Positions 10,326-27,924 of a stretch of 58,234 bases of DNA are shown piece by piece. Numbering within the stretch: the first letter of the stretch is position 1; each line of letters starts with the position of its first letter. Location of the stretch: contig PBMF01000015.1 of the NCBI GenBank assembly GCA_002721995.1, forward strand, positions 7,141 to 65,374, written 5' to 3'. The notes beneath the pieces were generated by a model. It ran no database searches. It was not told the origin of the DNA and saw only the letters and a program-made list of their open reading frames with translations. Source of the stretch: Chloroflexota bacterium. GTDB taxonomy: Bacteria > Chloroflexota > Dehalococcoidia > Lucifugimonadales > UBA3495. The translations under genes and the position numbers were made by a program.

Positions 10326-10634
10326 TTGGCTGAATTCAGCTTCCAGCGCGAGGTGCGCACCCCGTCTTCCGAGGCGTACATGATCATGGAACTGGACCGG
10401 CAGGTAGGCCGGGTGGACATCCATTTCACCAATGAGATGGTCCATGTCGCCATCGCCGCCGACGAGAGCCTGACGCAGGAGACAATCCAGGAGATCATCG
10501 ACTCGGTGGACGAGGACCTGGTGGACTCCGTGGGCATCAACCGGGAGAACTTCGTGGTCCACGTCTTTCAGGGCCGGGAGACCGGCGTTTTCAGCGACGA
10601 GAACGAGTTCAGCGAGGATGGCGATAATCACTAG
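10326..10634 (+). CDS. Small acidic hypothetical protein
   Basis: GGAGG SD before TTG start, coding-like composition, 102 aa. Confidence 0.7.
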   Translation: MAEFSFQREVRTPSSEAYMIMELDRQVGRVDIHFTNEMVHVAIAADESLTQETIQEIIDSVDEDLVDSVGINRENFVVHVFQGRETGVFSDENEFSEDGDNH

Positions 10635-10648
10635 GCACTAGCCCCTAG

Positions 10649-11200
10649 CTAGAGTTGTTCGATCAGCCTGGCCACGCTGGGCCGGTCGTGGGGCGCCTCC
10701 CCCCGGTGCTCAAAGACCACCGTACCGAACTCCCCCAGGATGAAATCCCCGCCCAACTGCTTCCAGTCGCTGGCCGCATGGTGGTAGCGCCGTCCCCTGA
10801 AGAGGAGTTTCAGGTAGGTCCAGACCGTCCGAGGGGAAAATATCTTAAGCCAGCTGCCCTCCACCAGCCCGTAGGCCGCGTAAGCCGTCCGTTCGGGGTC
10901 TGACAACACCGGAAAGGGCAGCCGTAGCTGCCGGGTCAACTGGAACAGACGTTCCTGGGGCTCAAAGGAGACGGCCACCACCGTGGCCCCCTTGGTCTGG
11001 ATATCTCCGTACTGCTGCCGCAACTGCGACAGATGCTCCCTTCAAGGCACTCAAGCGAAATGCCTGAGAAAGACCAACAATGTCTTGTTGCCCTTTAAGG
11101 ACTGGAGGGAACAGGGCTCGCCTTCGGGATTGGGCAGGGTGAAGTCGGGGGCGATGCGTCCGATGAGAGAGAACTGGGCGTCCGCTTGGCAGCCACTCAT
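10649..11200 (-). CDS. SelL-like / AhpC-TSA (peroxiredoxin-like) selenoprotein with UxxU motif, 183 aa
   Basis: Frame continues upstream of the tracked 124-aa ORF: MSGCQ...IAPDFTLPNPEGEPCSLQSLKGNKTLLVFLRHFA-TGA-VP-TGA-REHLSQL; TGAs at 11051-11053 and 11042-11044 fill both CxxC positions; SDPER..Y..YGL and QLGGDF family motifs downstream. Confidence 0.88.
11015..11032 (-). promoter_or_regulatory. Candidate bacterial SECIS hairpin
   Basis: CTGTCGC-AGTT-GCGGCAG; loop begins 16 nt after the second UGA and 25 nt after the first, and contains GU. Confidence 0.55.
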
Positions 11201-11264
11201 ATTTGGTTCATAAAAAGCTTGGTTTTTCCATGTGGCCGGGTTGTTTAGCCTGATTGTTTGTCGG

Positions 11265-12275
11265 CTATCCCATGTACGGGACGATGCGGTCTCCGATGAG
11301 GTCGATGGTCTTCATGATCTGGGCGTGGGAAGGGCCTCCGGAGTGGGCGTGGCGCAGCCGTAGTAGACAGCTCTCGGCCCCGGTGCCCTCGGCCCAACGC
11401 TGGAATTCCGTCAGACATTCTTCGGGGTCGCCCATTATCAGCCGGTCCTTGGCCACCCGTTCCAGGGTCAGTTCCGACTCGTCCTTGATGGACTGGAACT
11501 CCCGGAGCCCGTTCTTCCAGTAGTAGCGGTAGGCCTCCATGACCTCGGGGCCGTAGACGTCCTCGGCTTCCTTGCGGGAGCTGGCGACCCAGGCGTCGCG
11601 CATGATGATGGGAGTTGGCTGCTTGCCGGCGGCCTCCGCGGCATCTTTGTAATGGCCGATGAGCCGGCTGGTATGTTCCAGCGTGGTGCTGGGCGTGGTG
11701 ACGATGGCGTCGCCGATGGTCCCGGCGCGGCGGCCGCTCACAGGGGCGCTGGCCCCGATCCAGATTGGCGGATGGGGGTTTTGGATGGGGTCGGGCATGA
11801 CCCGCATATCGTCGATCTGGTGGTGCTTGCCGTCGAAGGAAAATGACTCTCGGGACCAACTGCGGCGGATGATCTCCACCTTCTCCTCGAACAGCTCCAC
11901 CCGGTCGTCCATCTCCACGCCAAAGGTGCGGAAGTCGGCCGGCTGGTAGCCCAGGCCCACCCCCAGCGTCACCCGGCCCTTGGAGACCACATCCAGGGTC
12001 ACCACGTCCTCGGCCAGCCGCACCGGGTGGTGCAGGGGCAGGAGAATGACTGAAGTGCCCACTCTGAGGGTGGTGGTTGCCGCCGCCACGGCGGTACAGA
12101 CGATGAGCGGCGAGGGCAGGAACCCGTCCTTGTCCTGGTGGTGCTCGCCGAAGAAGCAGGAATCGAAGCCCGCCTGCTCGGCCAGTTTGGCCTCTTCAAT
12201 GACCTCGTCCACGCAACGGGGAAGGTCTTCCCCCCTGGGCGGGTTGGCGATGGAGCTGTAGAGTCCGAACTTCAT
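11265..12275 (-). CDS. LLM-class flavin/F420-dependent oxidoreductase
   Basis: AEQAGFDSCFFGEHH, LPLHHPVRLAEDVVTLD, GRVTLGVGLGY, PHPPIWIG. Confidence 0.92.
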   Translation of the reverse strand: MKFGLYSSIANPPRGEDLPRCVDEVIEEAKLAEQAGFDSCFFGEHHQDKDGFLPSPLIVCTAVAAATTTLRVGTSVILLPLHHPVRLAEDVVTLDVVSKGRVTLGVGLGYQPADFRTFGVEMDDRVELFEEKVEIIRRSWSRESFSFDGKHHQIDDMRVMPDPIQNPHPPIWIGASAPVSGRRAGTIGDAIVTTPSTTLEHTSRLIGHYKDAAEAAGKQPTPIIMRDAWVASSRKEAEDVYGPEVMEAYRYYWKNGLREFQSIKDESELTLERVAKDRLIMGDPEECLTEFQRWAEGTGAESCLLRLRHAHSGGPSHAQIMKTIDLIGDRIVPYMG

Positions 12276-12408
12276 GGGGTCACCACCTAACTGTGCTAGG
12301 GAGTGCCGCCCTTCTCAGCGGAGAGCGGCACAGGGCATTTAACCATACTATCGCCCGTGCTGCCTGTTCGGGAGTCCCGAAGATATACAGGCGAATATCA
12401 TTAATTCT

Positions 12409-12437
12409 TTGAACCACTGTATTTATTTATGTATACT
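12409..12437 (+). promoter_or_regulatory. Sigma70-like promoter for the PKD-domain gene
   Basis: TTGAAC-17 nt-TATACT in an AT-rich patch. Confidence 0.55.
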
Positions 12438-12574
12438 GTCCACCGCCGCGCTGACGAGCGTGGCCTTTATAGGAACTTCACTTCGGCCTCCAGGCAGGCA
12501 GTCCACCGGCAAGGATTCTCCCCGGTATCGGTTTGCTTTGGGCCGTAACTTCAGAGAGAAAAATGCTGTAACGG

Positions 12575-15109
12575 TTGCCCTTAAAGGCACTGGTTTTGTT
12601 GGGCCTCATCGCCGCCGTGGTCTTCCCCATTGGTGCGGCAGCAGAAACGCCGGTCTTCACCAGCGATCCGCAACTAGATGCTCTGTCCGATGAGTTCTAC
12701 GAGTACACAGTCACCACAGAGCCCGTGGGTCACGTAAGGCTCGACCAACGGTTTGCCAATTGGGAATCCTGGTCCCTCCCTGAGCCCCAGGAATTTGGCC
12801 AATCGTTCACAGCCGGAGTGTCGGGGAACCTCCAAAAGATCTTGGTCCACTTTTACCGAGTCTTGGACCCGGAAACCGGGACCCTTGCTCTCGGCACCAC
12901 GGCGAAGCTACGGGTCTACGAAGGGGGCATCGTCCAGGGCGAGACAGTGGGCCAACCCGAGGGGCAGCAGATACATTACCAGGAGTTTGTCCACGATGAT
13001 CAGTGGCAACAGATCGTGCTGGACGGGGTGGTGCCGGTAACCGCCGGCCAGGAGTACACCTTCACCGTCGAAACGGTGGGCAGATCGTGGGCCGGGGCAA
13101 ATTCTCTGGACCCCTATTCCGGTGGCCGCAGCATACTCGACCCGGAGATGGACCATCTGGTCAGGACGTATGTCCAGGTCCCGGAGTACCCGGTCCTCAG
13201 TGTTGACCCGATGCTCGTGCCCGAAGCGGTGGACCAGTCGCAGCAGGAAAGCACCACACAGAGCTCAACCAGCAACAGGCATTTCGGTCAATCGTTCACC
13301 ACAGGCAACACCGGGGACCTAACCGCAGTCAGTTTCCACATCGACAGAGTATATGACCCGTCCACAGGTACATGGGTCACCGACAGCGACGCTGTGCTGC
13401 AGATATTCGAGAACGGTATCGACGGGATCACTCCCATCGGTCCCCGCGCTGTTTCCCAGGAAATCACCCTGGTGGGAGGGGCACAGACTGTCGCGCTGGA
13501 CGCACCCCTTCCAGTCACGGCGGGAAAGGTCTACACATTCCGGGTCCTGACCATTGGAACGACCGTGAACCCCATAACAACGTACGATGCCTACAGCGGC
13601 GGCCGTGCGTTGATTTATGACGGGTACGATCTGGTGTTTGAGACCTACGTCGCACCACTGAGCGGGCAGATTCCAGACTGGGCCACTTTCGTAGACAACG
13701 GTGACGGGACCGGTACTCTAAGCGGACTGCCGGGCCGGGATGGAATAGGGAGTTCCGAAGTGAGTATCCGGGCCACTCACCGGGGAGACACGGCTGTCCA
13801 GAGGTTCTGGATGACTGCCCTCGATGGGAACGAACCCCCAGTCGCCAATTACGTAGCCGGTATCTGGTGGGAAGGCCGCGAGAGGAATTTCGACGGTTCC
13901 GATTCGTATGATCCCGATGGTGAAATCGTCTCCTACGAATGGGACTTTGGCGACGGCACCGTTGTCAGCGGCGCCTCGGTCGATCACACCTATCAGGATG
14001 ACGGGGTATTCTTCCTAGAGCTGACGGTTACTGACGATATGGGGGCCACCGATACCCTTTCCCACGTCTATCACGTTTTCAATTTGCCGCCCGAGACCAC
14101 CGTGGTAGTCGATGAACCTGTCTATGAAGCCACTCGGTTCTACATCTATGCCACCGATTCCTGGGATGAAGGACCGGTGGACAATGCCAGCCGGTTTATT
14201 TATCAATACGACTGCGCCGATGGCAGAGGGTTCGGCGGCCGCACCTACTACACTGACTGGCGTTGCACGCTGGGCGACAGCGGCCCGGTGTTGGCAACCG
14301 TCAGAATCTTTGACAAAGACGACGGCTACCGCGACTATCACAAATACTTCCACGTGTTGAATCTTCCCCCGTGGGGTTATTTCGCCGTCGAACGCACGGT
14401 GGCCGAGGGACAGTCCTTCCCGCTATCTATTTTGAATGCCCGCGACGCGTCCCAGGCTGACATCGAGGCCGGGTTAGGATACGCCTTCGATTGCGGCGAC
14501 GGGCTCTCTGAATTCAGTACGTCTTCCAGTGTGGTCTGCCCTGGCAGGGATGCTGGAGTTGTATGGGTCACCGGTGTGGTCCGGGACAAGGATGGCGGCG
14601 AGAGAGCATACAACGCATCGGTGACCGTCCTGGCGCCGGCCGAGGTGGTGGCGGAGACCTCGGATGACTTGGCCGCCTTGGCTGAAAGCCCGTCCCTGGA
14701 GCCCGAGGCTGCCGAGGCCATCGAGTCCGCCGTGGTTGAACTGACCGGCAACACCGGCGGGAAGGGCGGCGCCAGCAACGGGGCCACGACGCTTCTGGAA
14801 AAGGACAACAACACCTCTGCCGTGACCAAGATCGGCAAGGCGGTGGCGAACCTTCTGGACGCCCAGGCCGCCGACCCAAGCTCGGACCTGACGGCGGAGA
14901 TCAACGCCTTGGTGTCCATGGTCAAAGCCGTTGCCCAGACTGAGATTGAAGAGGCCCAAGAGGCCGCTTCGTCCCCCGGTGACCAAAAGCGCATCGATGC
15001 CGCCCTCCAGTCGGTGGCTGAAGGCGACACACTGTTGGCCGCCGCCGACTATCTGGGCGCCTTTGATGCCTATCTGGCAGCCGTTCAGGCCGCTTCCAGC
15101 GTTCACTGA
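12575..15109 (+). CDS. Secreted PKD/Ig-like domain protein with a tandem duplicated beta-domain
   Basis: Signal peptide (..VVFPIGAAA/E), two FGQSFT.G..YSGGR repeats, DNGDGTGTLSG Ig-like segment, PKD motif FDGSDSYDPDGEIVSYEWDFGDG, two degenerate PKD-like units, Ala-rich helical tail. Confidence 0.85.
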   Translation: MPLKALVLLGLIAAVVFPIGAAAETPVFTSDPQLDALSDEFYEYTVTTEPVGHVRLDQRFANWESWSLPEPQEFGQSFTAGVSGNLQKILVHFYRVLDPETGTLALGTTAKLRVYEGGIVQGETVGQPEGQQIHYQEFVHDDQWQQIVLDGVVPVTAGQEYTFTVETVGRSWAGANSLDPYSGGRSILDPEMDHLVRTYVQVPEYPVLSVDPMLVPEAVDQSQQESTTQSSTSNRHFGQSFTTGNTGDLTAVSFHIDRVYDPSTGTWVTDSDAVLQIFENGIDGITPIGPRAVSQEITLVGGAQTVALDAPLPVTAGKVYTFRVLTIGTTVNPITTYDAYSGGRALIYDGYDLVFETYVAPLSGQIPDWATFVDNGDGTGTLSGLPGRDGIGSSEVSIRATHRGDTAVQRFWMTALDGNEPPVANYVAGIWWEGRERNFDGSDSYDPDGEIVSYEWDFGDGTVVSGASVDHTYQDDGVFFLELTVTDDMGATDTLSHVYHVFNLPPETTVVVDEPVYEATRFYIYATDSWDEGPVDNASRFIYQYDCADGRGFGGRTYYTDWRCTLGDSGPVLATVRIFDKDDGYRDYHKYFHVLNLPPWGYFAVERTVAEGQSFPLSILNARDASQADIEAGLGYAFDCGDGLSEFSTSSSVVCPGRDAGVVWVTGVVRDKDGGERAYNASVTVLAPAEVVAETSDDLAALAESPSLEPEAAEAIESAVVELTGNTGGKGGASNGATTLLEKDNNTSAVTKIGKAVANLLDAQAADPSSDLTAEINALVSMVKAVAQTEIEEAQEAASSPGDQKRIDAALQSVAEGDTLLAAADYLGAFDAYLAAVQAASSVH

Positions 15110-15136
15110 CCAGGTCTCCTTCCACCCAAAAACAAT

Positions 15137-15172
15137 CAAGGCCCCTGCCACCTAGGCAGGGGCCTTGTGCTT
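15137..15172 (+). terminator. Terminator-like hairpin
   Basis: CAAGGCCCCTGCC-ACCTA-GGCAGGGGCCTTG, weak T tail. Confidence 0.6.
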
Positions 15173-15226
15173 CCGCTAACATGCAGTTGAACCCAGGCCA
15201 GTGCCCATCAGGAGAACCGCCGCAAC

Positions 15227-16039
15227 ATGCCAGAACTTCCCGAGGTTGAGAACACCCGCCGCAACCTGGTGCGGTTTGGGTTGCCCGGCTGCACCATCAC
15301 CGGGGCCGACATAACCTGGGCCAACACGGTGAAGAAGCCGTCGGCTGCGGAACTGACTGAGGGCGTTAAGGGCCGGACCATCCAGGAGGCCCGTCGCAAG
15401 GGCAAGTTCCTGATGTTCCCCCTATCAGGCGCGGGGCCCGAGACCTTCATCGTGCATCTGGGCATGACGGGACGCCTGCTGGTGCAGCCCGCCTCCCAAG
15501 AGCCCGACCCCATGACCCGGCACACCTTCCCCCTGGACGACGGCCGGGAACTGCGCTTCGTGGACGGCCGGAAGTTCGGCAAGCTATGGTTGGTGGACTC
15601 CCCCGACGAGGCCCTGCCCAAGATGAGCCCGGAACCCCTGGACGACGAGTTCACCGTTGAGACCCTGGCCGAGTCCTTCGCTGGCAAGAAGGCGCCGGTG
15701 AAGGCGCTTTTGTTGGAGCAGTCGGTGGCCTGTGGGCTGGGGAACCTGTACGCCGACGAGTCGCTGTACCTGGCCGGCATCCACCCGGAGCGGCCGGCGG
15801 CGGGGCTTTCCACCGACGAAGTGGCCCGGCTGCTGCAGGGGATCACCGACGCGCTGAACGCGGCCTACGGGGTCTACGACCGGGCCCGGGACCAGCATTG
15901 GCCCGACCCTCCCACGGCCCTTACCACCTGGAGCCACCCCCGGGACGTCAACTCCCCCTGCCCCAACTGCGGCACCAACATGTCGGCCATCCGCGTCCGC
16001 GCCCGCGGCACCTACTTCTGCGGGAAGTGCCAGGTGTAG
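15227..16039 (+). CDS. mutM: Formamidopyrimidine-DNA glycosylase
   Basis: N-terminal MPELPEVE, RRKGKFL, HLGMTG, GLGNLYADE, zinc finger CPNC..RGTYFCGKCQ. Confidence 0.95.
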   Translation: MPELPEVENTRRNLVRFGLPGCTITGADITWANTVKKPSAAELTEGVKGRTIQEARRKGKFLMFPLSGAGPETFIVHLGMTGRLLVQPASQEPDPMTRHTFPLDDGRELRFVDGRKFGKLWLVDSPDEALPKMSPEPLDDEFTVETLAESFAGKKAPVKALLLEQSVACGLGNLYADESLYLAGIHPERPAAGLSTDEVARLLQGITDALNAAYGVYDRARDQHWPDPPTALTTWSHPRDVNSPCPNCGTNMSAIRVRARGTYFCGKCQV

Positions 16040-16067
16040 GGGAACCTAGAAATAGATAGCGCGAGGA

Positions 16068-16646
16068 TTAATCCGGCTCCAATTGTAGTGGTCTACTGGT
16101 CTCGTTTTTGGCGGGTTGGGTCTTCCACCAGACGGCCGCAAACATCGCAATTGGAGCATCGGTCAATGCGAGGATCATTGGCCATCCAAGCCCCAATGGT
16201 AGAAATTGGTCGAGTATCCGCAGAATCTCTCCCTCGTCTCCAAGACGAGAAACATTAGGACGGTTGCTTGTAACTAAATAGGCGAACATCGTGATCAAGA
16301 TGAAGGTCGCCCTAGGTAGCAAGGAGGAAATGAGGACGGCCTTGGCAAGCAATCTCTGTGTTCGGTTTTTCAGGCTGGATCTAATCAGCAAAATCCCGGC
16401 TACGCAGCCGGGCAACACTTGAAAAAACAAACCAAACAGGAGTCCGACAACTTGCTTAAAGTTGGTTAGTGCTTCCTCGTCTGGCGTTACTTTGAGCCAG
16501 CCAATCTCGGAATCGACACCGACCAGCGTATACCCTAACCAGTGCCCGGATTCATGTATAAACTGCCATATTCCGAAAGTAAGCAGGGCAACTAATAGAA
16601 TTTTGCCGAGAAGGGTCCAAAAGCTAGTTCCCTGCCAGACACCCAC
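16068..16646 (-). CDS. Membrane protein with HExxH, possible M50-like metallopeptidase
   Basis: FIHESGH after a hydrophobic helix, several TM segments, visibly lower GC than neighbours. Confidence 0.55.
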   Translation of the reverse strand: MGVWQGTSFWTLLGKILLVALLTFGIWQFIHESGHWLGYTLVGVDSEIGWLKVTPDEEALTNFKQVVGLLFGLFFQVLPGCVAGILLIRSSLKNRTQRLLAKAVLISSLLPRATFILITMFAYLVTSNRPNVSRLGDEGEILRILDQFLPLGLGWPMILALTDAPIAMFAAVWWKTQPAKNETSRPLQLEPD

Positions 16647-17066
16647 CTACACCGCAGTCCCGTACACGCGGTCTGGGACCACTATGACGGCGGAGCGGCG
16701 GTCGGCGACCATGGCCTGGTCGTACTCCTCCCAGTTGGGGTGTTCGCCCTTGGTGGCGGCCCGGTAAACGTCCCGCAGGGCCAGGCGCAGTTCGTCGGCA
16801 TCGGTCTCGCCGGGCGAGAGGATGGTGGCCTCGCCCTCCAGCACCACGTAGCCCCACCAGTCGCGCTGGGAGACCATCAGTGAGCAGCGGGAGTCTCGCT
16901 TCAGGTTCAGCAGCTTGGCCCGGTCGGCGGTGGTGGTGAAGGCCACGCCGTCGCCGTAGGCCCCGCAGGTCACGACGCTCATCTGGGGCATGCCGTTCCG
17001 CCGGAAGCAGCTCAACACACCCTGGTGGTTCTCGGTGGTGAATGCCCGCACATTATCAGACAGCAT
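16647..17066 (-). CDS. PPOX-class F420-dependent oxidoreductase
   Basis: Start MLSDNV at 17066; RRNGMPQMSVV, RAKLLNLKRDSR, YVVLEGEA, HPNWEEYDQAMVADRR. Confidence 0.88.
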   Translation of the reverse strand: MLSDNVRAFTTENHQGVLSCFRRNGMPQMSVVTCGAYGDGVAFTTTADRAKLLNLKRDSRCSLMVSQRDWWGYVVLEGEATILSPGETDADELRLALRDVYRAATKGEHPNWEEYDQAMVADRRSAVIVVPDRVYGTAV

Positions 17067-17556
17067 CGTCTCTCTCCGGGTCCAGCTCGAATTCGATCTC
17101 GTACATGTCGTAGTGGGTCTCCTGCATGCGCAGGCCTTTATAGACCCCCTGGGCGATCTCGTTATCCTTGTCCACGTAGAGCCGCAGGCCGCAGACGTTG
17201 CCCTGGCGGCGGGCCTCCACCGCCGTGTATATATGGAGGGACTTGTAGACCCCCATGCGGCGGTAGTCCGGGGCCACGTAGACGCTCTGAATCCACCAGA
17301 AGAAGGCGTTCCGCCAGTCGCTCCACTCATAGGTTATGAGCAGCTGGCCAACCTGTCGGCCCATATGCTCGGCCACCAGATAGAAACCCAGGTCATTGCG
17401 GGTGAGCACGGCCTCGACGCCGGGCCGCAGGTCCCGTTCCCGCAGTTCCTTGTCCTCGGTTTCCTTGGCCATGGCCGCGTTGAAGGCGACGATGGTATCC
17501 AGATGGGCCAAAGACGCCCGCCGGACCTGTATCTCATTTCCCGGGAAAGAAGTCAC
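17056..17556 (-). CDS. GNAT family N-acetyltransferase
   Basis: TYEWSDWRNAFFWWIQSVYVAPDYRRMGVY, LRLYVDKDNEIAQGVY. Confidence 0.9.
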   Translation of the reverse strand: MTSFPGNEIQVRRASLAHLDTIVAFNAAMAKETEDKELRERDLRPGVEAVLTRNDLGFYLVAEHMGRQVGQLLITYEWSDWRNAFFWWIQSVYVAPDYRRMGVYKSLHIYTAVEARRQGNVCGLRLYVDKDNEIAQGVYKGLRMQETHYDMYEIEFELDPERDDAV

Positions 17557-17573
17557 ATCAACTCCAGGGGTCT

Positions 17574-20159
17574 CTACCGCAATACGAAGCTCGAGCCGTT
17601 TTCGTCCTTCTGTACTTCGATGCTAACAGGAAAGGCCTCTTTCAGGTCGTCCAGGTGAGTGATGACCACCACCTTTTCGAAGTCGTTGCCGATGGCGCTG
17701 ATCACGTCCAGGATACGTTCCCGTCCCACGGCGTCCTGGGTGCCGAACCCCTCGTCGATGAACAGTGTTGGCAGGGGCGCGCCCAGCCGCTGGGCTAGGA
17801 CCCGCGATAGGGCGATGCGTAGGGCCAGGTTGACGCGGAAGGCCTCGCCGCCGCTGAACATCTCGTAGCTCCGGGAGCCCAGTTCGTCGGAGACCAGTAT
17901 CTCCAGGGTCTCCCTGGGTTCTCCCTGGCCTGAAGCCCGCTCCCTCTGGGTTTCCAGTTTCACGTTCATGCGGTTGTCGGTCATGCGGCCCAGGAGGGCG
18001 TTGGTCTCGTCCTCCAGCCGGGGCACCACTGTCTCGATGAGCATGGCCTGCACCCCCTGGCGGCCGAAGGCGGTGGACAGTTCCTGGTAGATGGACTGTT
18101 CTTCCTGGAGGGCGCTGAGGCGGGCGGACTCGGACTTCATCTCCAAGCCCAGGGATTCCTTGCGCTCCAACTGGTTTCGCAGGGCGCCCTGCCGCTCGAT
18201 GGACTGTTGTATCCTGACGCCCAGTTCCCGTTCCCGCTGCTCCGCTTGGGTGAACTCGCTCTCCAGCGCGGCCAGTCCCGCCAGCGCCTCCTTGGCCTGG
18301 GCGGCCTGGGTCTCCAGTTGTTCCAGCTCTTCCTTGCGGCTTTGGGCCATGGCCAGGTTCTGTTCCGCCGTTTCCCTGGTTGTGGGCAGGCCCTCTTCCG
18401 CCTGATTCAGCGATTGCTCCTGCTGGGCAAATACCTCCAGTCCCTGGGTCTCTCGGAATATCCGCTGGCGAGCTTCGGGGTCGTAGTCCAACTCCTGTAT
18501 CTGTGCCTCCAGTTTCTGGAGTTGGACCGATTCTTCGGCAGCGAAGGAGCCGTCGGCCAGGGACGCCTGCATGGCATCAAGCCTGGGTGTGACCTCGGCC
18601 AATTCGGCTCTGGCCTGCTGGGACTCCTGGACCTGTTGCTCAAGCTGCTGGAGGCGTACCTGGCGTTGGTTCTTGGCCTGGGTCAGGGTTTTCTCCTGTT
18701 GGGGTAGGCGCCCGTCCAGTTCGGCGGCCTCGGCTTTCAGGGTATTCACCTGGGCCGAGGTGGTCCGGTATTCCTGGCGCTTGGCCTCGATGTCGGCGTC
18801 GTAGGTCTCGGCCAGCCGTTGGCAGCCGTCCTCGCTCAGGGGAGTCTGGCACAGGGGACACACCGCCTCGTCGCCGTTGGCTCCGTTCAGGAGTTCCCTC
18901 CTGGCCGTCAGGTCCTTGCCCTCTTGGGCGAACCGCTGCAGTGAGGCCTCAAGTTGCCCGACCTGGACCGCCAGGCCATTGGAGCGTTCCCTCTCCGAGG
19001 CCAGTTCCAGTTCCTGCTTCTCCAGGTCCGGGGCCTGGGACTGCAATTGCGCCTGCTCCGCCAAGAGCTGCTCCAATCCGGCTGCTTTGGGGGCCAGGCG
19101 GGTGTCCAAGTCGCTGGTCAACTGCTGGACCTGGGACTCCAGCAGGGTCCGCTTTTGGGATACGGCGTTGGCCAGGTCCCGCCGCTGGTTTTCCAGTGAG
19201 TCGTAGCTGCGTCCGGCCTCCTCCAGCCGGGCGAAGGCGGTCCGGGCCTGGGCCAGTTGGGCGGCGCCCTGGCGGATGGCCGGGGCCTGCTCCACCAGTT
19301 TTTCGAAGGCAGTGACCTGTTGCTGGGCGGTCCGGTAAGCCGCCTGGAACTGCTCGTGCTCCCTGGCCAGGGCGGCCAGGCGCTGGGCCGTTTCTTCCTG
19401 ACCGGCCTGCTGCCGCCGCAATTCGCCCACCTGATCCCGTAGTCCCGTGGTCTTGGCCTGCTGCTGGGCTAGGTCCTGGTTCAGGGCAGCCAGGCTTGTC
19501 TCCAGTTCTTCCAGCTCAGAGGCAGGTGTTTCCAGTTGCTCCAGCTCCCGGCGCAGGCGGTCCACGTTGCCCTCGGCTATCTTGGATGTGTTCTCGGCCC
19601 AGGAGTTGCCCTCCCTGGCGCGCACCTGCAGCCTGTCGTAGGCCTCCAGGCCCAGTATCTTGCTGAGGACGGCCTTGCGCTCGGCCGGGGTCTTGTTGGT
19701 GAACTCGTCGGCCCGGCCCTGGACCAGGAAGGCCGAATTTATAAAGGTGTCGTAGTCCATACCTACGGTCTGGTCGATGCGGGCTTGGGTCTCGCGGATC
19801 ATGTCGCCGGTGATAGGCCGGGTGGTGTCGCCCTCGATGACCATGAGCTGCAGGTCTGAGGCGCCGCCCCGCCGTCTCCTGCCGCCCCGGGCGTGGCTGC
19901 GGATGATGCGGTACTCCTGGTCCCGGGAGGAGAAATCCAGCTCAACACGGCACTCGTCGGCGCCGTAGGAGATCATCTCGTCTTGGACCCGGCCCCGGGC
20001 CTTGCCCCAGAGCGCCCAGGTGATGCTGTCCAGGAGGGCCGATTTGCCGTGGCCGTTGTTGCCGCAGAGGCAGGCGACGTGGATACCGGCGAAGTCCAAC
20101 GTGGGGACGTTCTCCCGGTAGCACAAAAAGTTACTGATGGTAAGCCTGAGGGGTATCAT
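17574..20159 (-). CDS. sbcC: SbcC/Rad50-family SMC-like ATPase
   Basis: Walker A GNNGHGKS, coiled coils, CPLC zinc hook, FSGGE signature, LFIDEGFG, VITH. Confidence 0.93.
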   Translation of the reverse strand: MIPLRLTISNFLCYRENVPTLDFAGIHVACLCGNNGHGKSALLDSITWALWGKARGRVQDEMISYGADECRVELDFSSRDQEYRIIRSHARGGRRRRGGASDLQLMVIEGDTTRPITGDMIRETQARIDQTVGMDYDTFINSAFLVQGRADEFTNKTPAERKAVLSKILGLEAYDRLQVRAREGNSWAENTSKIAEGNVDRLRRELEQLETPASELEELETSLAALNQDLAQQQAKTTGLRDQVGELRRQQAGQEETAQRLAALAREHEQFQAAYRTAQQQVTAFEKLVEQAPAIRQGAAQLAQARTAFARLEEAGRSYDSLENQRRDLANAVSQKRTLLESQVQQLTSDLDTRLAPKAAGLEQLLAEQAQLQSQAPDLEKQELELASERERSNGLAVQVGQLEASLQRFAQEGKDLTARRELLNGANGDEAVCPLCQTPLSEDGCQRLAETYDADIEAKRQEYRTTSAQVNTLKAEAAELDGRLPQQEKTLTQAKNQRQVRLQQLEQQVQESQQARAELAEVTPRLDAMQASLADGSFAAEESVQLQKLEAQIQELDYDPEARQRIFRETQGLEVFAQQEQSLNQAEEGLPTTRETAEQNLAMAQSRKEELEQLETQAAQAKEALAGLAALESEFTQAEQRERELGVRIQQSIERQGALRNQLERKESLGLEMKSESARLSALQEEQSIYQELSTAFGRQGVQAMLIETVVPRLEDETNALLGRMTDNRMNVKLETQRERASGQGEPRETLEILVSDELGSRSYEMFSGGEAFRVNLALRIALSRVLAQRLGAPLPTLFIDEGFGTQDAVGRERILDVISAIGNDFEKVVVITHLDDLKEAFPVSIEVQKDENGSSFVLR

Positions 20160-20315
20160 GGGGAAGGCCCTTTAACGGCCTGGGAAAGGAGACGCAATAC
20201 CTGTCACCTCCACCGCACCTGGGGTTGGGTCCCGGCCCGGAATTCGGGCTATCCGGAGCGGACATAATTCTAGCACAGGGGCCGCTGCGCCGGGGGTAAG
20301 CCGTGCCTGGCCGCC

Positions 20316-20345
20316 TTGACCCTGTGACTGGGCCCAGCCTACAAT
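20316..20345 (+). promoter_or_regulatory. Sigma70-like promoter of ffh
   Basis: TTGACC-18 nt-TACAAT. Confidence 0.55.
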
Positions 20346-20392
20346 CAACAGTAACCAACAGCCAGGCAACAACCAGGATATTTCCCAAGAAT

Positions 20393-21727
20393 ATGTTCGA
20401 AAATCTAACCGATAAATTGACCGGAATCCTGAACAAGCTGTCCAGCAAGGGCCGCTTGACCGAAGGAGATGTCGACGAGGCCCTGAGCCTGGTCCGGCGC
20501 TCGCTGCTGGAAGCCGACGTCAATTTCCGGGTGGCCAGGGACTTCGTCTCCGCGGTCAAAGAACGCTCCATCGGCGCCGACGTACTGGAGAGCCTCTCCC
20601 CAGGCCAGCAGGTCATCAAGATCGTCCACGAGGAGTTGACCTCGCTGCTCACGGGCGGCGACCACTCCCTGACCCTATCCAGTCAGGCGGTGACGCCCAT
20701 CATGCTGGTGGGCCTCCAGGGCTCGGGTAAGACCACCACCGCCGCCAAGCTGGCCCTGGACCTGCGCCGTCAGGGGCACAAGACGCTGCTCATCGCCGCC
20801 GACCTGCGCCGCCCCGCCGCCATCCAGCAGTTGGAGACCCTGGGCAAGCAGTTGGACGTGCCGGTTTACTCCGAGGACCCCAAGTCCTCGACCGTGGTCA
20901 AGGTGGCCAAGAACGGCTTGGAGAAGGCCCAACAGTTGGGCGTCAACTGGGCCATCATAGACACCGGCGGCCGCCTCCAGATCGACGAAGAGCTGATGCA
21001 GGAACTGGCCGAGGTCAAGAAGGCGGCCAACCCCCAGGAAGTGCTCCTGGTGGTTGACGCCATGACCGGTCAGGAGGCGGTCAGCGCCGCCGAGGGGTTC
21101 CACGAGCATGTGGACCTCACCGGCCTGATCATGTCCAAGATGGACGGCGATGCCCGCGGCGGCGCCGCTCTGTCCATCACCCGGGTAACCGGTGTGCCCA
21201 TCAAGTACATCGGCGTGGGAGAGCGGCCCGATGGGCTGGAAGTCTTCCACCCCGACCGGCTGGCCTCCCGCATCCTGGCCATGGGCGATATCCTGACGCT
21301 CATAGAGAAGGCCCAGGACGCGGTGGACGAGAAAGAGGCCGCGGAGATGGAGAAGAAGTTCCGCCAGGCCAACTTCGACCTGGAGGACTTCCTGGGCCAG
21401 ATCCAGAACGTCAAGAAGATGGGGTCTCTGTCATCGGTGATGGAGATGATCCCCGGCATGAGCCAGATGGCCAAGAAGATGCCCATGGGCGACCTGGACG
21501 ACGGCCGAGTGGAGCGCATCGAGGCCATCATCCGCTCCATGACTCCCCAGGAACGGCAGCGGCCCGAGATCATCAACGGGAGCCGCCGCCGCCGCATATC
21601 CCGGGGCAGCGGCACCACGCCCCAGGATATCAACCAACTGCTGAACCAGTTCCGGCAGACCCAGAAGCTGATGAAGCAGATGGCCAAGACCCGAAACCCC
21701 ATGTCCCTGATGAAGATGTTCCGTTAG
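20393..21727 (+). CDS. ffh: Signal recognition particle protein
   Basis: Start MFENLTDKL at 20393; GLQGSGKTT, DTGGR, KMDGDARGGAAL, Met-rich M domain with SRRRRISRGSG. Confidence 0.97.
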   Translation: MFENLTDKLTGILNKLSSKGRLTEGDVDEALSLVRRSLLEADVNFRVARDFVSAVKERSIGADVLESLSPGQQVIKIVHEELTSLLTGGDHSLTLSSQAVTPIMLVGLQGSGKTTTAAKLALDLRRQGHKTLLIAADLRRPAAIQQLETLGKQLDVPVYSEDPKSSTVVKVAKNGLEKAQQLGVNWAIIDTGGRLQIDEELMQELAEVKKAANPQEVLLVVDAMTGQEAVSAAEGFHEHVDLTGLIMSKMDGDARGGAALSITRVTGVPIKYIGVGERPDGLEVFHPDRLASRILAMGDILTLIEKAQDAVDEKEAAEMEKKFRQANFDLEDFLGQIQNVKKMGSLSSVMEMIPGMSQMAKKMPMGDLDDGRVERIEAIIRSMTPQERQRPEIINGSRRRRISRGSGTTPQDINQLLNQFRQTQKLMKQMAKTRNPMSLMKMFR

Positions 21728-21788
21728 GGCAGCGCAGGCGCGTTTCCCTTCTCTAGAACAGCGTTTTTGTTCGACTTTGGGTCGGAGA

Positions 21789-23234
21789 TCAGACCACCCG
21801 GTTCCCTTCGTCAACGTATGTTGTCTTGCCGACGTGGGTCACCTTTATCTGCTGGCGGTAGGTGTTGTCCCCCTGGTTGTGCTGGGCGTCGTGGAGCTCG
21901 GTGACCGGTCGTACTTCGCCGGGTTCGGGGCCGTCAGCGATGGCCTCGGAAAGGGCCCGGCCGTCCATGGCGTTACCGCCCTCGATTCCCAGGATTCGTA
22001 GATATGTGGGGGCCAGGTCTAGGTTGCCCGAGGGTGTTTCCAGTCTGAGACCCGACTTGAAGCTGGGTCCTCCGGCGAACATGATGCCGTGAATCTCGTG
22101 GAGGCTCATGGAACCGTGCTGTCCGGTGCCTGGCTCACCGCCGGTGGAATACACCTGGCCGTCGTAACCCGCGCCGTTGGGCGACGACTCCCACCGGAAC
22201 GAAACGGTCAGTTCCGGAGCGCGGGGGCCTTGGTTCCCCACCAGCGATGCCGGCAACGTCCCGGGGATGCCGGATACCGCGTCCGAGGCGGTAACAGTGC
22301 CGCACCAGGGTTGCTCCATCAGCCAGTGGGCCAACCGGGTCGCGGTGCTCATGTCGCCGGGCTGGGTGTAGAGCAGCGCGGCGCCGCCGTTCTGGGCTAC
22401 GACCACTCCCCCCTCCTCTCCCCCGGCAGCGAAACCGGCCTCTAGCAGCAAAGACTCGATGGCCACGTTCCCCGAGATGGTCGAGTACCCGTGGTCCGAC
22501 GCCACAATCACGTCGGTGTCGTAGGCCCGTCTGTTCTCTTGGAGCCATCGGAGCAGGTCGCCGAACTGCCCGTCCGCTTCTTTGATAGCGGTGTCGGAAA
22601 GGGTGGAGCCGACCCCCGAAGCGTGCTGGGACTTGTCCGGTTCAGAAGACCAGATAAGGGTCACCGCCGGGTCGCGTTCGGGGATGATGTGCTCTGTCAG
22701 CACCCGCATGGCGTGGGCCAACCGGGATGTGTTGGGGAGGGACTCATCGGGCCAGGGCCCAAAGCGGTCGATGAGGGATTCGTGGAGGTCGCCGGGCCGG
22801 GCGAACGTTGGGTGGATGGTGGCCCCACCTGAAATCTCGGCGGTGGGGTTGTGCAGATAGGCGTTTCCGCTGGTGCCGACGACGATGGCCACGTACTCCT
22901 TCCCGTGCCGGGAAAGGATGTCGGACAGCGTCGGGCCTAATAGCACCGGCAGCCCGGCGGCCGCCACCTGGTCAAGCTCGGGCTGCAACGCGGATATGGC
23001 CCGGTCCGCCGCGAACTCCCGCAGCATGAACCGGTTGCCCGCCAGTCCGTGTCCTCCCGCATTCAGGCCCGTGGCCATGCTGGAGGCATTGACCCGGGTT
23101 ACCGTGGGGAACACGGAATGGTGATTGGCGAAGGTAACGCCGGCGGCGGCGAATGCCGCCAGGTTGGGCATAAGCCGGGGGTTCACCTGGGCCGGCTGCA
23201 GCCCGTCAAAGACGAAGACGATTATTGATGACAT
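21789..23234 (-). CDS. Alkaline phosphatase superfamily nucleotide pyrophosphatase/phosphodiesterase
   Basis: VFDGL, FPTVTRVN (Thr nucleophile), EPDKSQH, ASDHG, GQHGS, DLAPT. Confidence 0.88.
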   Translation of the reverse strand: MSSIIVFVFDGLQPAQVNPRLMPNLAAFAAAGVTFANHHSVFPTVTRVNASSMATGLNAGGHGLAGNRFMLREFAADRAISALQPELDQVAAAGLPVLLGPTLSDILSRHGKEYVAIVVGTSGNAYLHNPTAEISGGATIHPTFARPGDLHESLIDRFGPWPDESLPNTSRLAHAMRVLTEHIIPERDPAVTLIWSSEPDKSQHASGVGSTLSDTAIKEADGQFGDLLRWLQENRRAYDTDVIVASDHGYSTISGNVAIESLLLEAGFAAGGEEGGVVVAQNGGAALLYTQPGDMSTATRLAHWLMEQPWCGTVTASDAVSGIPGTLPASLVGNQGPRAPELTVSFRWESSPNGAGYDGQVYSTGGEPGTGQHGSMSLHEIHGIMFAGGPSFKSGLRLETPSGNLDLAPTYLRILGIEGGNAMDGRALSEAIADGPEPGEVRPVTELHDAQHNQGDNTYRQQIKVTHVGKTTYVDEGNRVV

Positions 23235-24241
23235 GCTTCTCTCCATGTGTCAGGGGCCAGGGCCCGAATGGTCCTTTCGTAGGAGTCTTTCAGTCCGCCC
23301 ACGGCGATGGGCGCTATGATGGGCCGGTCCAGTCCTATGGCGCGAAGTTGGTTGAGACGTTCCAAGCATACCTCGGCCGGGCCCACCACGCCCAGTTCCT
23401 GCTGCATGTTCTCGCCGATGGCGGCGGCGCTGGCCGGATCGTCGCGGTGCTCCCTGCTCAGAGACACACCCTCCATCTCGGTACCGAACCCGGTGCTCTG
23501 GAAGAAGTTGCGGTAGTGGGAGCTAGTGGCGTAGCGCGCGATCTGCCGCTGCAGACCGTCCCTTCCCGCCGCCAGGTCGTCGGTGACGGCAACCCGCAGG
23601 TAACCGGAGATGGCCACTTCGGATGGGTCGCGTCCGGCCTTGGCGGCGCCTTCCCGAACCAACTGGATGGCCCGCTCCAGGTAAGTGGCCGCCGTCCAAC
23701 TGAGCAGCACTCCGTCGGCGATCTCACCGGCCAGTTGCAGCATCTTGGGTCCCAGCGCGGCGATATAGATGGGCACCCGGCCCTTGGGAGCGGCGTCGCC
23801 CAGAGAGATTCCGTTGACGCTCAGCGCCTTTCCGTGATGGGTGACCGTCTCGCCATGGAGTAATCCGTGGGCGATGTGCACCAAGTCGCGCAGGTGTTCC
23901 ATGGGCTGCTGGAAGACCAGTCCGTGCCCGTCCTCCACCGCCGGCCGGTTGCCTACGCCCAGACCCAGGATGAACCGCCCGCCCGAGACCTCGGAGAGTC
24001 CGGCGGCGGACATGGCCGTGATTAGCGGCGTGCGCGAGAACATGGGCAGGATACCCGTTCCCAGGCCGATGCGGCTAGTGACCGTGGCCATGGCGGTTAG
24101 CTGGGTCAAGGAGTCCCGGCCCACACCCTCGGTCATCCAGATCTCGCCGTAACCGGAGTCCTCGGCTTCCGCAGCCAGCGACTGGATGTCGGTAACGGAA
24201 AGTTGGGTCTCGTTTCCCAACCTAAGTCCAAGAAAGGCCAT
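23222..24241 (-). CDS. LLM-class F420-dependent oxidoreductase (Mer-like)
   Basis: SGGRFILGLG, PIYIAALGPKMLQLAGEIADG. Confidence 0.9.
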   Translation of the reverse strand: MAFLGLRLGNETQLSVTDIQSLAAEAEDSGYGEIWMTEGVGRDSLTQLTAMATVTSRIGLGTGILPMFSRTPLITAMSAAGLSEVSGGRFILGLGVGNRPAVEDGHGLVFQQPMEHLRDLVHIAHGLLHGETVTHHGKALSVNGISLGDAAPKGRVPIYIAALGPKMLQLAGEIADGVLLSWTAATYLERAIQLVREGAAKAGRDPSEVAISGYLRVAVTDDLAAGRDGLQRQIARYATSSHYRNFFQSTGFGTEMEGVSLSREHRDDPASAAAIGENMQQELGVVGPAEVCLERLNQLRAIGLDRPIIAPIAVGGLKDSYERTIRALAPDTWREACHQ

Positions 24242-24266
24242 CAACAACTCCTAGGCATTGGCCATA

Positions 24267-24979
24267 GTCATTCCAGCCGAAGCTGGAATCCACGCCACAT
24301 GATAGCGCAGAATCGTTGCCAATCTGAATTTCGGGAGTGCGCCGGAACGACTGGAACAGGAGACCAGGTTATGGGGGCATGAACCAAATGATGTAGGGGT
24401 AGGTTTCTAACCTGCCCCGTTTCGCGTTTGGTCATCCTGGCGGAGCAAGGTCAGGCCCGATACCAGGATGTCTTTGTGCCTGAGAAACGATATAAGAGCA
24501 GCAGGGCGGATTGGAAACCCGCCTCTACAATTTGACGTGCTTTGGTATTCCGCTCACCCTAATCCGGTCGAAGGGCCGTGGTTCGACGGGCTCACCATGA
24601 GCGGGTGCGGGATGGTCCGATAAGGTGGAGGTTGGTTGGCTGGGTATCCGGGTGGGTTGGAAACTCGCCCCTACGGAGGCGTACAGTCTGTCATTCCGGC
24701 CTGCGCCGGAATCCAGTATGTTTCTGAAGCGCCAACGTACCCTGTGCGAAGTCTCCTGGATTCCGGTTTTCACCGGAATGACGCGGGGGACTTTTTCTCC
24801 GACACGGTTCGTCCTGAGCTTGTCGAAGGGGCCGCACCAAACATCCTACGGGTGGGGCGAGAAGTCCGGAGCGGCCGTGGTTCGACAGGCTCACCATGAG
24901 CGGATGCGGGATTTGAGCTGGTTTCCTGACCGAGTTGTTGGGGGAGTTTTCTGGATTCCGGCGTGCGCTGGAATGATGG
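24267..24979. repeat. Intergenic mosaic of REP-like palindromes (three families, about 11 units)
   Basis: GTCATTCC..GGAATCCA type at 24267, 24690, 24756 (rev), 24951 (rev); GTAGGG type at 24392, 24503 (rev), 24650 (rev); GTCGAAG/TTCGAC..GCTCACCATGAGCGG type at 24550-24604, 24806 and 24876. Confidence 0.85.
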
Positions 24980-24987
24980 GGTGGGTT

Positions 24988-25914
24988 CTAGCCGGCCCCG
25001 GTGCGGAGGGCGCTGAACAGATAAACGGTGGCAAAGGTGCGGTAGGGCGACCAGCGCTGGGCGATGTCTTCCACCTGCGCGTCGGTGACCTCGGCGCCGT
25101 TGGTGAACAGCTGTGAGACCACGCGCCGCAAGGCCAGGTCGCCCAGGGGTAGCGCGTCGGGGCGGCCCACGGCGCGGATGAGCACCCACTGGGCCGTCCA
25201 CATACCAACCCCCCGCAGGCCCACCAGTTTGTCCACAATCTCTCCGTCGGGGAGCGTACTCAGATTCTCCAATCCAACCCCGTCGTCCAGTGCCGAACCG
25301 GCCAGCCCGTGGACATACTCGGACTTCCGTTGAGTGAGCTTCATGGTGTGGAGTTCGGCGGGAGACGAAGCCCAGATGGCCTGGGGTCTGGGGAAGGCGT
25401 AGTAGGTCTCGCCGTCGAACTGGCCGCTGGGCCCGAAGGTCTCAATGAGCAGGGTGCGTATCACCCGGGCCACGGTGGTGGATATCTGCTGTCCCAGCAC
25501 CGCCAGCACCAGGGCTTCAAAGACCGAGGCCGCGTGGGGCAGGTGCAGCCCGTAGAACCGGTCCACCAACTGGGACATGGCCCCGTCTTTCCTCCCCAGT
25601 TCGTAGAAGGGAGCCAGGTCCTGGTCCACGCCCAAGAGCCAGGACACCCGGTCTTTGGCCTGTGCAACGTCGGCGTCGGAAAGGTCGGGTCCCTGCAGCT
25701 CCACAGCCAGTTCCGGCGCGTCGGTGGTGCCCGTGGAATGCACGGACGCCAGGACCAGTTTGTCTCCCAGGTCCAGCAGGCGGCGGTAGATGCCGTCCTC
25801 CATGGTGTCGGTGCCGTACCGACTCTGGAAGTAGGTGTGGTAGCTGGCCGTTAGCTGGAAGTTGAAGGGCGCCACGGGCTTGATGGCGGTGCTAAAGCGG
25901 TCCATGGCGTTCAC
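24988..25914 (-). CDS. alkA: DNA-3-methyladenine glycosylase II
   Basis: FEALVLAVLGQQIS, AFPRP, HhH motif LRGVGMWTA, DALPLGDLALRR, WSPYR. Confidence 0.9.
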   Translation of the reverse strand: MNAMDRFSTAIKPVAPFNFQLTASYHTYFQSRYGTDTMEDGIYRRLLDLGDKLVLASVHSTGTTDAPELAVELQGPDLSDADVAQAKDRVSWLLGVDQDLAPFYELGRKDGAMSQLVDRFYGLHLPHAASVFEALVLAVLGQQISTTVARVIRTLLIETFGPSGQFDGETYYAFPRPQAIWASSPAELHTMKLTQRKSEYVHGLAGSALDDGVGLENLSTLPDGEIVDKLVGLRGVGMWTAQWVLIRAVGRPDALPLGDLALRRVVSQLFTNGAEVTDAQVEDIAQRWSPYRTFATVYLFSALRTGAG

Positions 25915-26510
25915 CCGCCACCCAGGGAGGCCGCGCCCACCAGATAGTGACGGGACCCGGCGGGGTCAAGCTCGGTGCGCATCAGGTGTACCGCGTCCGC
26001 CTGCCAGGAAAAGTCTCCCGAGAGGTCTCCCTCGGCCATGGCCCGGCCAATCTTCCGCAGTTGCCCCTCCGGCGTTTCCCGGCGCACCCGGCCCAGGGTC
26101 AGGTGGGGCGAGAACTCGCGCTGTTCTCTGGGCAGGCCCAAGTCCGCTACGGCGTCGTCAACGGCCAGTTGCAGGGCTGAGAGTGCATCCATGTCGCCGG
26201 TTATCCCGGCCCACAGGACGCGCGGACGCCTGGCGTTGGGGAACACGCCCAACCCCGACAGGGAAAGGCTGAAGGGAGCGAAATCCGCCGCCACCTCCGG
26301 CAGAGCGGAATCGACTTTGGTCACCATATCACCGGGGATGTCGCCCATGAACTTCAGAGTCAGGTGGATGCCCTCGGGCCGCACCCAGCGCACGTTTCTC
26401 CCGAAGTCTGAGTCCAGTTGTTCCACGGTCCGCTTCAGGATGTTGATGCCATCCGGCGGCACCGGAATGGCGATGAAGGAGCGGACCTTGTCGTTATTGG
26501 AGAAGGTCAC
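25911..26510 (-). CDS. thpR: RNA 2',3'-cyclic phosphodiesterase (2H family)
   Basis: RSFIAI, HLTLKFMG and FSPHLTLGR (two HxT motifs), PRVLWAG; GTG start overlapping the mug stop. Confidence 0.92.
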   Translation of the reverse strand: MTFSNNDKVRSFIAIPVPPDGINILKRTVEQLDSDFGRNVRWVRPEGIHLTLKFMGDIPGDMVTKVDSALPEVAADFAPFSLSLSGLGVFPNARRPRVLWAGITGDMDALSALQLAVDDAVADLGLPREQREFSPHLTLGRVRRETPEGQLRKIGRAMAEGDLSGDFSWQADAVHLMRTELDPAGSRHYLVGAASLGGG

Positions 26511-27058
26511 CCGCCCGAGACCTCTTTCAGCCGGCCGTACCACTCGGCCAGGTCGTCCAGGGAGTACTTGGCGTTGGCCGGGCTGGGGTTGGGGACGACG
26601 AAGACCCGGGACGGGCCGATGACTCGTTCTTGCAGTCCAAGTTGGGGGCTCTCCTTCACACCCTCGCCGTGCTGAAGGTAGGCCTTGTAGGCCATCAGCC
26701 CGTGGAAACAGACCAACTTGGGCGAAAAGCGCAGTATCTTTTCCTTCAGGACCGGTGCCCACCGGCGGAAGTCGGCGGCGCGCAGGCCCGAGCCCATGGG
26801 AGTGGGGCGCTTGGCCACGTCGGTGAACCCGATGCCGTCGTCCAGCAGGGTGGCGTCATCCTCGGCGGTGACCTGCCGCCCGACCAGGCCCGAACGGTTG
26901 AAGGCCGGCCAGAACCGGTTGCGAGGATTGGCGAAGTAGTGGCCCACCTCGGCCGAGTACTGGGAAGGGTTCAGACCGACGAACAGCAGGTCCAGCCCCT
27001 CCCGCAGGTGGTCGGGCAGGGTGAGTATATCTTCGGGTCCGGCTTGGTCGGTGATCAT
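26507..27058 (-). CDS. mug: Mismatch-specific uracil/ethenocytosine DNA glycosylase
   Basis: LFVGLNPS, HYFANPRNRFW, VPNPSPAN. Confidence 0.92.
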   Translation of the reverse strand: MITDQAGPEDILTLPDHLREGLDLLFVGLNPSQYSAEVGHYFANPRNRFWPAFNRSGLVGRQVTAEDDATLLDDGIGFTDVAKRPTPMGSGLRAADFRRWAPVLKEKILRFSPKLVCFHGLMAYKAYLQHGEGVKESPQLGLQERVIGPSRVFVVPNPSPANAKYSLDDLAEWYGRLKEVSGG

Positions 27059-27894: not shown

Positions 27895-27924
27895 GGCGTA
27901 ATCCCCGCCTGGGCGGGGCAGGGG

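Follow-up and report, generated by a model that had tools for sequence, protein, structure and literature searches.

The locus analysed here raises a simple question: Is a reading frame broken by two TGA codons, exactly where related proteins carry the cysteines of a CxxC redox motif, the remnant of a decayed gene or the complete gene of a protein with two selenocysteine (Sec, U) residues? The frame lies on the minus strand of the window, by which we mean the whole stretch of 58,234 nucleotides that was analysed, and the original prediction had taken it for a SelL-like redoxin with a UxxU motif that ORF calling had missed. From the evidence assembled below we consider it highly probable that the gene encodes a real selenoprotein with two Sec residues and one SECIS hairpin.

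The frame and its protein family

With TGA read as U, positions 11200-10649 of the minus strand form an uninterrupted frame of 183 amino acids terminated by TAG; the complete gene (10649..11200) runs from ATG 11200 through 183 codons to TAG 10651-10649. Calling ORFs with translation table 11 splits the same frame into a 49-aa ORF (11051-11200) and a 124-aa fragment that starts at TTG (10649-11023), in line with the claim that the gene had been overlooked. The two TGA codons, number 50 and 53, stand in the context ...LLVFLRHFA-U-VP-U-REHLSQLR.... The first (UGA 1, Sec50, 11051..11053, minus strand) takes the first position of the redox motif, that of the N-terminal nucleophile in thioredoxins (Trx), and the other (UGA 2, Sec53, 11042..11044, minus strand) takes the second position, aligned with the peroxidatic cysteine of BCP/PrxQ proteins.

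The protein matches the NCBIfam model NF040769, which is known here by its name, "SelL-related redox protein", and its description line and says nothing about Sec content, with 156.2 bits (curated cut-off, 120) and over model positions 3-172 of 173; all the aligned relatives match it too (34/34). Pfam finds AhpC-TSA (9.3e-24), AhpC-TSA_2 (2.5e-14) and Redoxin (2.7e-12) in the sequence. An AlphaFold2 model obtained with 34 aligned sequences (pLDDT 82, pTM 0.80) places the motif, residues 50-53, between a strand (39-44) and a helix (51-62), which is the classical active site of the thioredoxin fold. Two features of SelL are thus present: Sec codons stand at the two cysteine positions of CxxC, and the fold predicted by this model is thioredoxin-like, the motif lying where helix alpha1 begins at its N-terminus.

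Among solved structures, the nearest folds retrieved by Foldseek from the PDB are those of Bcp4, AhpE, BCP and ResA (E ~1e-11 to 1e-10, TM ~0.7), with Bcp4 3hjp reaching an E value of 4.3e-12 and a TM score of 0.71. Sequence alignment with the BCP of PDB entry 2cx3 brings the second TGA to the peroxidatic cysteine and the first to the serine of the S/T-x-x-C motif of peroxiredoxins (Prx). This likeness to PrxQ/BCP, AhpE and ResA/TlpA proteins does not extend to family membership, for the scores fall far below the respective cut-offs: 43.6 versus 140 bits for the PrxQ/BCP model NF006960, 45.2 versus 170 and 27 versus 230 bits for the ResA/TlpA models NF002854 and NF047696. The AlphaFold2 model differs from these proteins also by an additional helical insert (roughly residues 117-134), which corresponds to the AhpC-TSA_2 part. 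Two full-length homologues, P0106 and P0109, have a CxxC motif with cysteines at both TGA positions. The placement of the TGA codons at the two CxxC positions, as originally proposed, is borne out by such alignments, and each of the variants then anticipated has been found: CxxC in these two proteins, UxxU as UVPU or ULPU, and UxxC as ULPC.

The same truncation recurs in public records. Among 5.8 billion proteins searched, 108 relatives were recovered. Almost all have about 126 aa and correspond to the C-terminal 68% of the query, so that gene callers have truncated the clade as a whole. Those relatives which bear a name belong to the SAR202 cluster, Chloroflexi or Dehalococcoidia. The public records of the clade are mostly C-terminal fragments labelled "redoxin domain-containing" or "hypothetical", and the active site is therefore absent from about 100 of them. 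In the parts of the SAR202 literature that a full-text search brings up, selenocysteine is scarcely mentioned.

Conservation of the TGA codons and their hairpin

A six-frame search (E<=1e-20) of 201 sampled genomes of the same taxonomic family, SAR202-type Chloroflexota, found a match in 36 of them, with 13 of the 19 genomes sampled from the same genus, the window's own apart, among those matching. The match contains two TGA codons in 27 of the 36 genomes and a single one in six; in one genome its only stops are TAG or TAA, and in the other two it is partial and leaves the motif uncovered. In the 27 genomes, which represent about ten genera, both TGA codons recur at the same two positions, in agreement with the original argument that two chance nonsense mutations at these sites are unlikely.

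For alignment we extracted 36 rows, comprising the window, 29 loci of the family, two duplicates and four loci from another family of the same order. The commonest motifs are UVPU (14 rows, or 12 without the duplicates) and ULPU (12 rows), followed by ULPC and ULAG with three rows each; ULAS, SLPU, UVXU (with an N in the contig) and UAPU are found in one row each. The UAPU row, L063 (G260:C34:158626-159144), keeps both TGA codons and the hairpin described below, yet it has two TAG and one TAA in frame, probably because this copy has decayed recently, or else because its assembly is poor. The four loci of the other family (L023-L026) read N-C-U-L-A-S/G, with a cysteine directly before the single Sec and with the second redox residue absent; they may represent a C-U selenenylsulfide variant of the SelL-related family.

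Codon analyses were conducted on 31 rows, after dropping the two duplicates, two rows with N and L063. The position of UGA 1 is TGA in 30 of these 31 orthologues and Ser in the other, while that of UGA 2 is TGA in 24 and Cys, Ser or Gly in the rest; the second TGA is retained in orthologues as distant as ~54% identity. In 30 pairwise comparisons with the window sequence, the 38 codons preceding UGA 1 have a median pS of 0.67 and pN of 0.32, and the codons following UGA 2 have values of 0.66 and 0.29. Ten within-genus pairs gave dN/dS ratios of 0.10-0.37 upstream and 0.09-0.22 downstream, the upstream ratio being not computable in two of the ten pairs because synonymous sites were saturated. 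The pattern of purifying selection is the same before and after the TGA codons, and we conclude that both halves are translated. The initiator ATG 11200, 49 codons before the first TGA, is common to same-genus orthologues. In 24 of 26 orthologues the Ala codon 49 (11054-11056, minus strand), immediately before the first UGA, reads GCT, while other Ala columns use four codons; this bias may reflect a codon-context constraint on recoding.

How could two UGA codons so close to each other be decoded? The candidate bacterial SECIS hairpin (11015..11032, minus strand) has a 7-bp stem, in which 11032-11026 pairs with 11021-11015, and a loop AGUU (11025-11022) that begins 25 nt after UGA 1 and 16 nt after UGA 2. 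It forms when 10960-11060 is folded to minimum free energy, although this fold of 101 nt is in itself little more stable than shuffled sequences (z -1.62; 14 of 200 shuffles fold as well). Over 90 nt around the UGA codons, aligned in 33 sequences, RNAalifold finds a single consensus structure, and this is the 7-bp stem (columns 31-37 with 42-48). The stem is paired in 97.8% of cells, compared with 20-84% in slid controls; three of its seven pairs show changes on both sides (9 cells), and none of 500 shuffles reached the covariation score. The double changes are mostly inherited within clades and consequently amount to about three independent events, located in a clade of four sequences (at the stem base), in the four sequences of the other family and in L066. 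In the clade of four, the base of the stem has passed from C-G to U-A via a Leu codon changed from CUG to UUG and a Gln codon changed from CAG to CAA, two synonymous replacements that together keep pair 31-48. The support from covariation is real but not deep, and the hairpin singled out by the original prediction, which is present in the minimum-free-energy fold, holds its place as the only conserved and covarying structure.

Codons 58-60 have no synonymous variation, with Ser58 encoded by TCG in 26/26 sequences, Gln59 by CAG in 31/31 and Leu60 by TTG in 31/31; other invariant Leu columns use three to six codons (1.35-2.33 bits). Variants with one UGA keep the hairpin in the same register, both those that have UGA 1 only (ULPC, ULAS and ULAG) and that which has UGA 2 only (SLPU). 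Since neither the hairpin nor its register differs between first-only and second-only variants, a single candidate SECIS plausibly serves both UGA codons, as had been proposed; of the arguments at hand for one element acting on either or both, this is the strongest.

A scan of 10400-11500 with Rfam (E<=10) recovered no SECIS family, a result that would be informative only if Rfam holds a general model of bacterial SECIS, and the two matches obtained were at chance level (a lncRNA and a viral IRES). Two other Sec candidates of the same genome could be folded for comparison, selD and a redoxin on contig C13; their loops begin 27 nt and about 21 nt after the UGA, respectively, and each has a G among its first two loop bases (n=2). 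The bacterial SECIS model of Zhang and Gladyshev, dating from 2005, is reported to allow 16-37 nt between UGA and loop and to require that one of the first two loop bases be G. [quoted passage not shown]

Decoding machinery, rival readings and gene neighbourhood

The assembly of the window's genome has 2.57 Mb in 50 contigs and is 88% complete. It possesses the three protein genes by which Sec decoding is recognised in bacteria: selA (TIGR00474, 562.6 bits; 452 aa), selB (TIGR00475, 343.3 bits; 624 aa) and selD (TIGR00476, 371.5 bits), all above the cut-offs, the first two without internal stops and the third with U in its CAGUAAK motif. The gene for this SelD (G000:C48:12067-12984) is followed by a hairpin of its own. 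A paralogous redoxin with U-V-F-C and a downstream hairpin (G000:C13:114301-114639) is another candidate selenoprotein, and redoxin matches with one in-frame TGA are numerous across the order.

The expectation of a complete selABCD set stood for selA, selB and the Sec-containing selD, while selC was recovered only as a 3' fragment. ARAGORN found no tRNA-Sec among the 38 tRNAs of this 88%-complete assembly; the tRNAs for Cys, Lys and Trp are missing as well, and the tRNA set is therefore incomplete. The best match above the cut-off for tRNA-Sec was rejected, being a tRNA-Ser. Another match, at C12:106-190 with a UCA anticodon, obtained 40.6 bits in Rfam, under the cut-off of 47, and we have discarded its interpretation as an unusual compact tRNA-Sec, for its relatives match only the 3' 69 nt and have canonical genes of their own. 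These 69 nt show 94-100% identity in nearly all full-length matches and in 78 of 81 genomes. The canonical tRNA-Sec of relatives is intact, being called SeC by ARAGORN in 8/8 loci and scoring 66-68 bits with Rfam in 5/5 loci. Since the relatives match only the 3' 69 nt, inside their canonical tRNA-Sec, this assembly must hold a 3' fragment of selC near a contig end. The fragment (G000:C12:106-195, L006/L083) lies 126 nt from that end, with unrelated sequence before it. Several relatives (among L084-L112) have from two to seven partial 3' copies of tRNA-Sec, some of which are 1.5-5 kb apart (G208, G199 and G175 are examples), as though mobile elements had integrated at selC repeatedly.

The data presented so far bear on two readings in which no Sec would be involved. 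According to the first, the gene is decayed or split, two nonsense mutations having left an N-terminal peptide of 49 aa together with a 124-aa fragment whose translation restarts at TTG 11023. It is true that table-11 calling yields exactly these pieces, that nearly all public relatives are pieces of about 126 aa and that L063, with its additional TAG and TAA stops, looks decayed. Yet decay would hardly leave both TGA codons in place in 27 of 36 genomes and about ten genera, the 38 upstream codons under purifying selection equal to that seen downstream, cysteines at both positions in homologues and a covarying hairpin downstream of the TGA codons, and we regard this reading as very improbable. 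The other reading, that TGA stands for an ordinary amino acid under code 4 or 25 (Trp or Gly), has nothing in its favour except the open frame itself and borders on the untenable. In this genome TGA functions normally as a stop and ends 516 of the 1759 open frames of at least 300 codons; selA and selB lack internal TGA codons; among the 38 tRNAs, none for Trp or Gly has a UCA anticodon; and the TGA codons of the SelL gene fall on Cys positions, not on Trp or Gly positions.

A subtler possibility is that one UGA is efficiently decoded as Sec while the other is often read as Cys, Trp or stop, with the result that the main product would be a protein of selenenylsulfide type or a truncated one. 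The unequal spacings to the loop, 25 and 16 nt, would fit this possibility, the latter being the shortest when compared with those of selD and the C13 redoxin (n=2). So would the natural U-x-x-C relatives, found in 3 of the 36 rows, as their existence shows that the protein can work with one Sec. On the other hand, the second TGA has been kept in 24 of 31 orthologues down to ~54% identity, and the SLPU relative has only the second UGA, precisely at the 16-nt spacing. Published SelL, studied by Shchedrina in 2007, reportedly inserts both Sec residues, which also counts against unequal decoding. We consequently deem this possibility improbable, and prefer the reading in which the protein would contain two Sec residues.

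Turning to the surroundings of this two-Sec gene, a luciferase-like monooxygenase (LLM) is encoded immediately upstream (11265..12275, minus strand; PF00296, E 7.9e-68), and its end at 11265 is 64 nt from ATG 11200. Linkage or co-transcription with the LLM gene as a conserved feature, which the original prediction had entertained, did not hold: LLM is a neighbour in this genome only, and no LLM homologue lies beside the SelL gene in any of the 35 other loci (0/35; tblastn, E<=1e-5, flanks of ~1.5 kb, or 3 kb for two loci). Upstream regions were scanned in 26 of 34 loci, eight being left out. The longest frame found there was in 20 cases an Amidohydro_2 gene of divergent orientation, in five a transketolase-like gene on the same strand and in one a frame with a UDG domain (uracil-DNA glycosylase superfamily). 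The window has its own copy of the usual upstream amidohydrolase at 27055-27894, about 16 kb away. In two genus-mates, the blocks upstream of SelL map to 25118-27903 of the window and the blocks from SelL to proA map to 11173-7733; it follows that the adjacency to LLM derives from a rearrangement of about 16 kb, one border of which is situated in the upstream spacer of SelL. No pair of inverted repeats turned up at either border of the rearrangement in a search over 11100-28200. LLM therefore does not belong to the SelL system. On the downstream side, 23 of 35 loci retain a convergent 102-aa ORF (10326-10634) and 21 of 35 retain proA. This acidic ORF, on the plus strand directly after proA, has no Pfam family and shows 55-88% identity in relatives; its conservation next to proA in the 23 loci implies that it is a real, unnamed small protein. 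Beyond the LLM gene, 12575-15109 (plus strand) encodes a protein of 844 aa that contains a PKD domain and begins with a signal-like sequence.

The non-coding stretch upstream of the gene (11201..11236, minus strand) is similar over about 35 nt in the same-genus orthologues L052-L063, and in same-genus upstream sequences a TATTAT/TTTTAT box ends 9 nt before the ATG. No GGAGG-like Shine-Dalgarno run is present in the 20 nt preceding ATG 11200, consistent with the weak ribosome-binding site noticed at the outset. It is possible that this stretch contains the gene's own promoter and gives rise to an mRNA that is leaderless or has a very short leader. A simple scan for the sigma-70 consensus found no promoter upstream of the SelL gene, and the box is therefore to be taken as a lead only. 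Three terminator-like sites fall within coding sequence or on the other strand.

RNA libraries provide additional information. One marine metatranscriptome run contains 69% of the sampled words of 10500-12400. A contig from the RNA library is identical to 10956-11161, with 0 differences, and spans both TGA codons and the hairpin; one contig also bridges 11132-11463, from the 3' end of LLM to the start of SelL. Contig coverage is missing over 10797-10938 and in a few other bins, and runs X2-X4 reach only parts of neighbouring genes; we draw no conclusion from these gaps. These runs come from one study, may hold DNA and may share a sample with the genome assembly; their contigs support the sequence and the junction, not a single LLM-SelL transcript.

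A proposed mechanism and its place among SelL proteins

Bacterial SelL proteins of UxxU type that depend on one SECIS have been described before and, the principle having been published since 2007, a gene of this kind holds no surprise for the specialist. In the PNAS paper of Shchedrina et al. from that year, the SECIS of bacterial SelL is reported to be located within the coding sequence, its spacing being suited to insertion at either UGA or at both. Passages on SelL in PMC2397514 describe a diselenide bond and an occurrence in fish, invertebrates and marine bacteria, and a passage of PMC4989117 states that a single SECIS acts on two UGA codons placed two codons apart. The GOS survey contains UxxU sequences in a family called 'Prx-like 2' (in the relevant section of PMC2398784), while a table in a 2022 review lists Prx-like selenoproteins (pfam00578) with UxxC or UxxU and AhpC-TSA_2 selenoproteins with UxxS (PMC9312934).

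The gene described here resembles SelL in its thioredoxin-like fold, in having U-x-x-U at the position of CxxC, in its marine-bacterial occurrence and, with its one candidate hairpin, plausibly in the use of one SECIS for two UGA codons two codons apart; it resembles SelL also in having relatives with Cys in place of one or both Sec residues. It differs in that its clade is that of SAR202-type Chloroflexota and includes SxxU and UxxS/G forms too. Its link with SelL passes through the 'SelL-related' model of NCBIfam, not through eukaryotic sequences, and the formation of a diselenide would follow by analogy with published SelL. With the Prx-like and AhpC-TSA_2 selenoproteins mentioned in the table and section cited above (PMC9312934, PMC2398784) it shares Pfam domains, the UxxU, UxxC and UxxS motifs and marine metagenomic origin; the likeness to the 'Prx-like 2' sequences of the GOS survey is one of domains, motif class and origin. 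What is new is that a well-sampled UxxU clade can be assigned to SAR202-type Chloroflexota, that its UxxU, UxxC, SxxU and UxxS/G motifs form a natural series on a fixed hairpin, and that a local rearrangement accounts for the LLM adjacency.

How would this system operate? During translation, SelB carrying Sec-tRNA(Sec) would bind the single in-frame hairpin (11032-11015), which would recode both UGA codons from a loop lying 25 and 16 nt downstream of them. The product would be a cytoplasmic oxidoreductase of thioredoxin/peroxiredoxin fold, a member of the SelL-related family endowed with a U50-V-P-U53 motif, and in the mature protein the two Sec residues, whose insertion at both sites we infer, would sit at the N-terminus of helix alpha1. 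By analogy with SelL, its most likely cycle would alternate a diselenol with an intramolecular diselenide, or else pass through a selenenic intermediate, which the second Sec would resolve. An oxidised substrate, presumably a peroxide or a compound of disulfide type, would thereby be reduced, and the protein would then be re-reduced by a cellular reductant.

Extended to the whole lineage, the picture becomes considerably more speculative. We tentatively suggest, as a conjecture with rather less than an even chance of being right, that across SAR202-type Chloroflexota a near-invariant hairpin in fixed register decodes a UGA situated 25 nt upstream of its loop, or 16 nt upstream, or both, with repeated switching among UxxU, UxxC, SxxU and UxxS/G motifs, and that the diselenide form constitutes a lineage-wide core redox protein of dark-ocean bacteria. 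With corrected gene models, the selenoproteome of SAR202, which is abundant in the deep ocean, would gain a two-Sec protein. If the conjecture were true, these genes would represent a natural mutational series for the positional tolerance of the bacterial SECIS, and either the Trx-type or the Prx-type position could carry the catalytic Sec. The UxxU, UxxC, SxxU and UxxS forms on their fixed hairpin would provide a ready-made test set for the distance between SECIS and UGA, and the same series of motifs would help in asking what a diselenide couple is good for.
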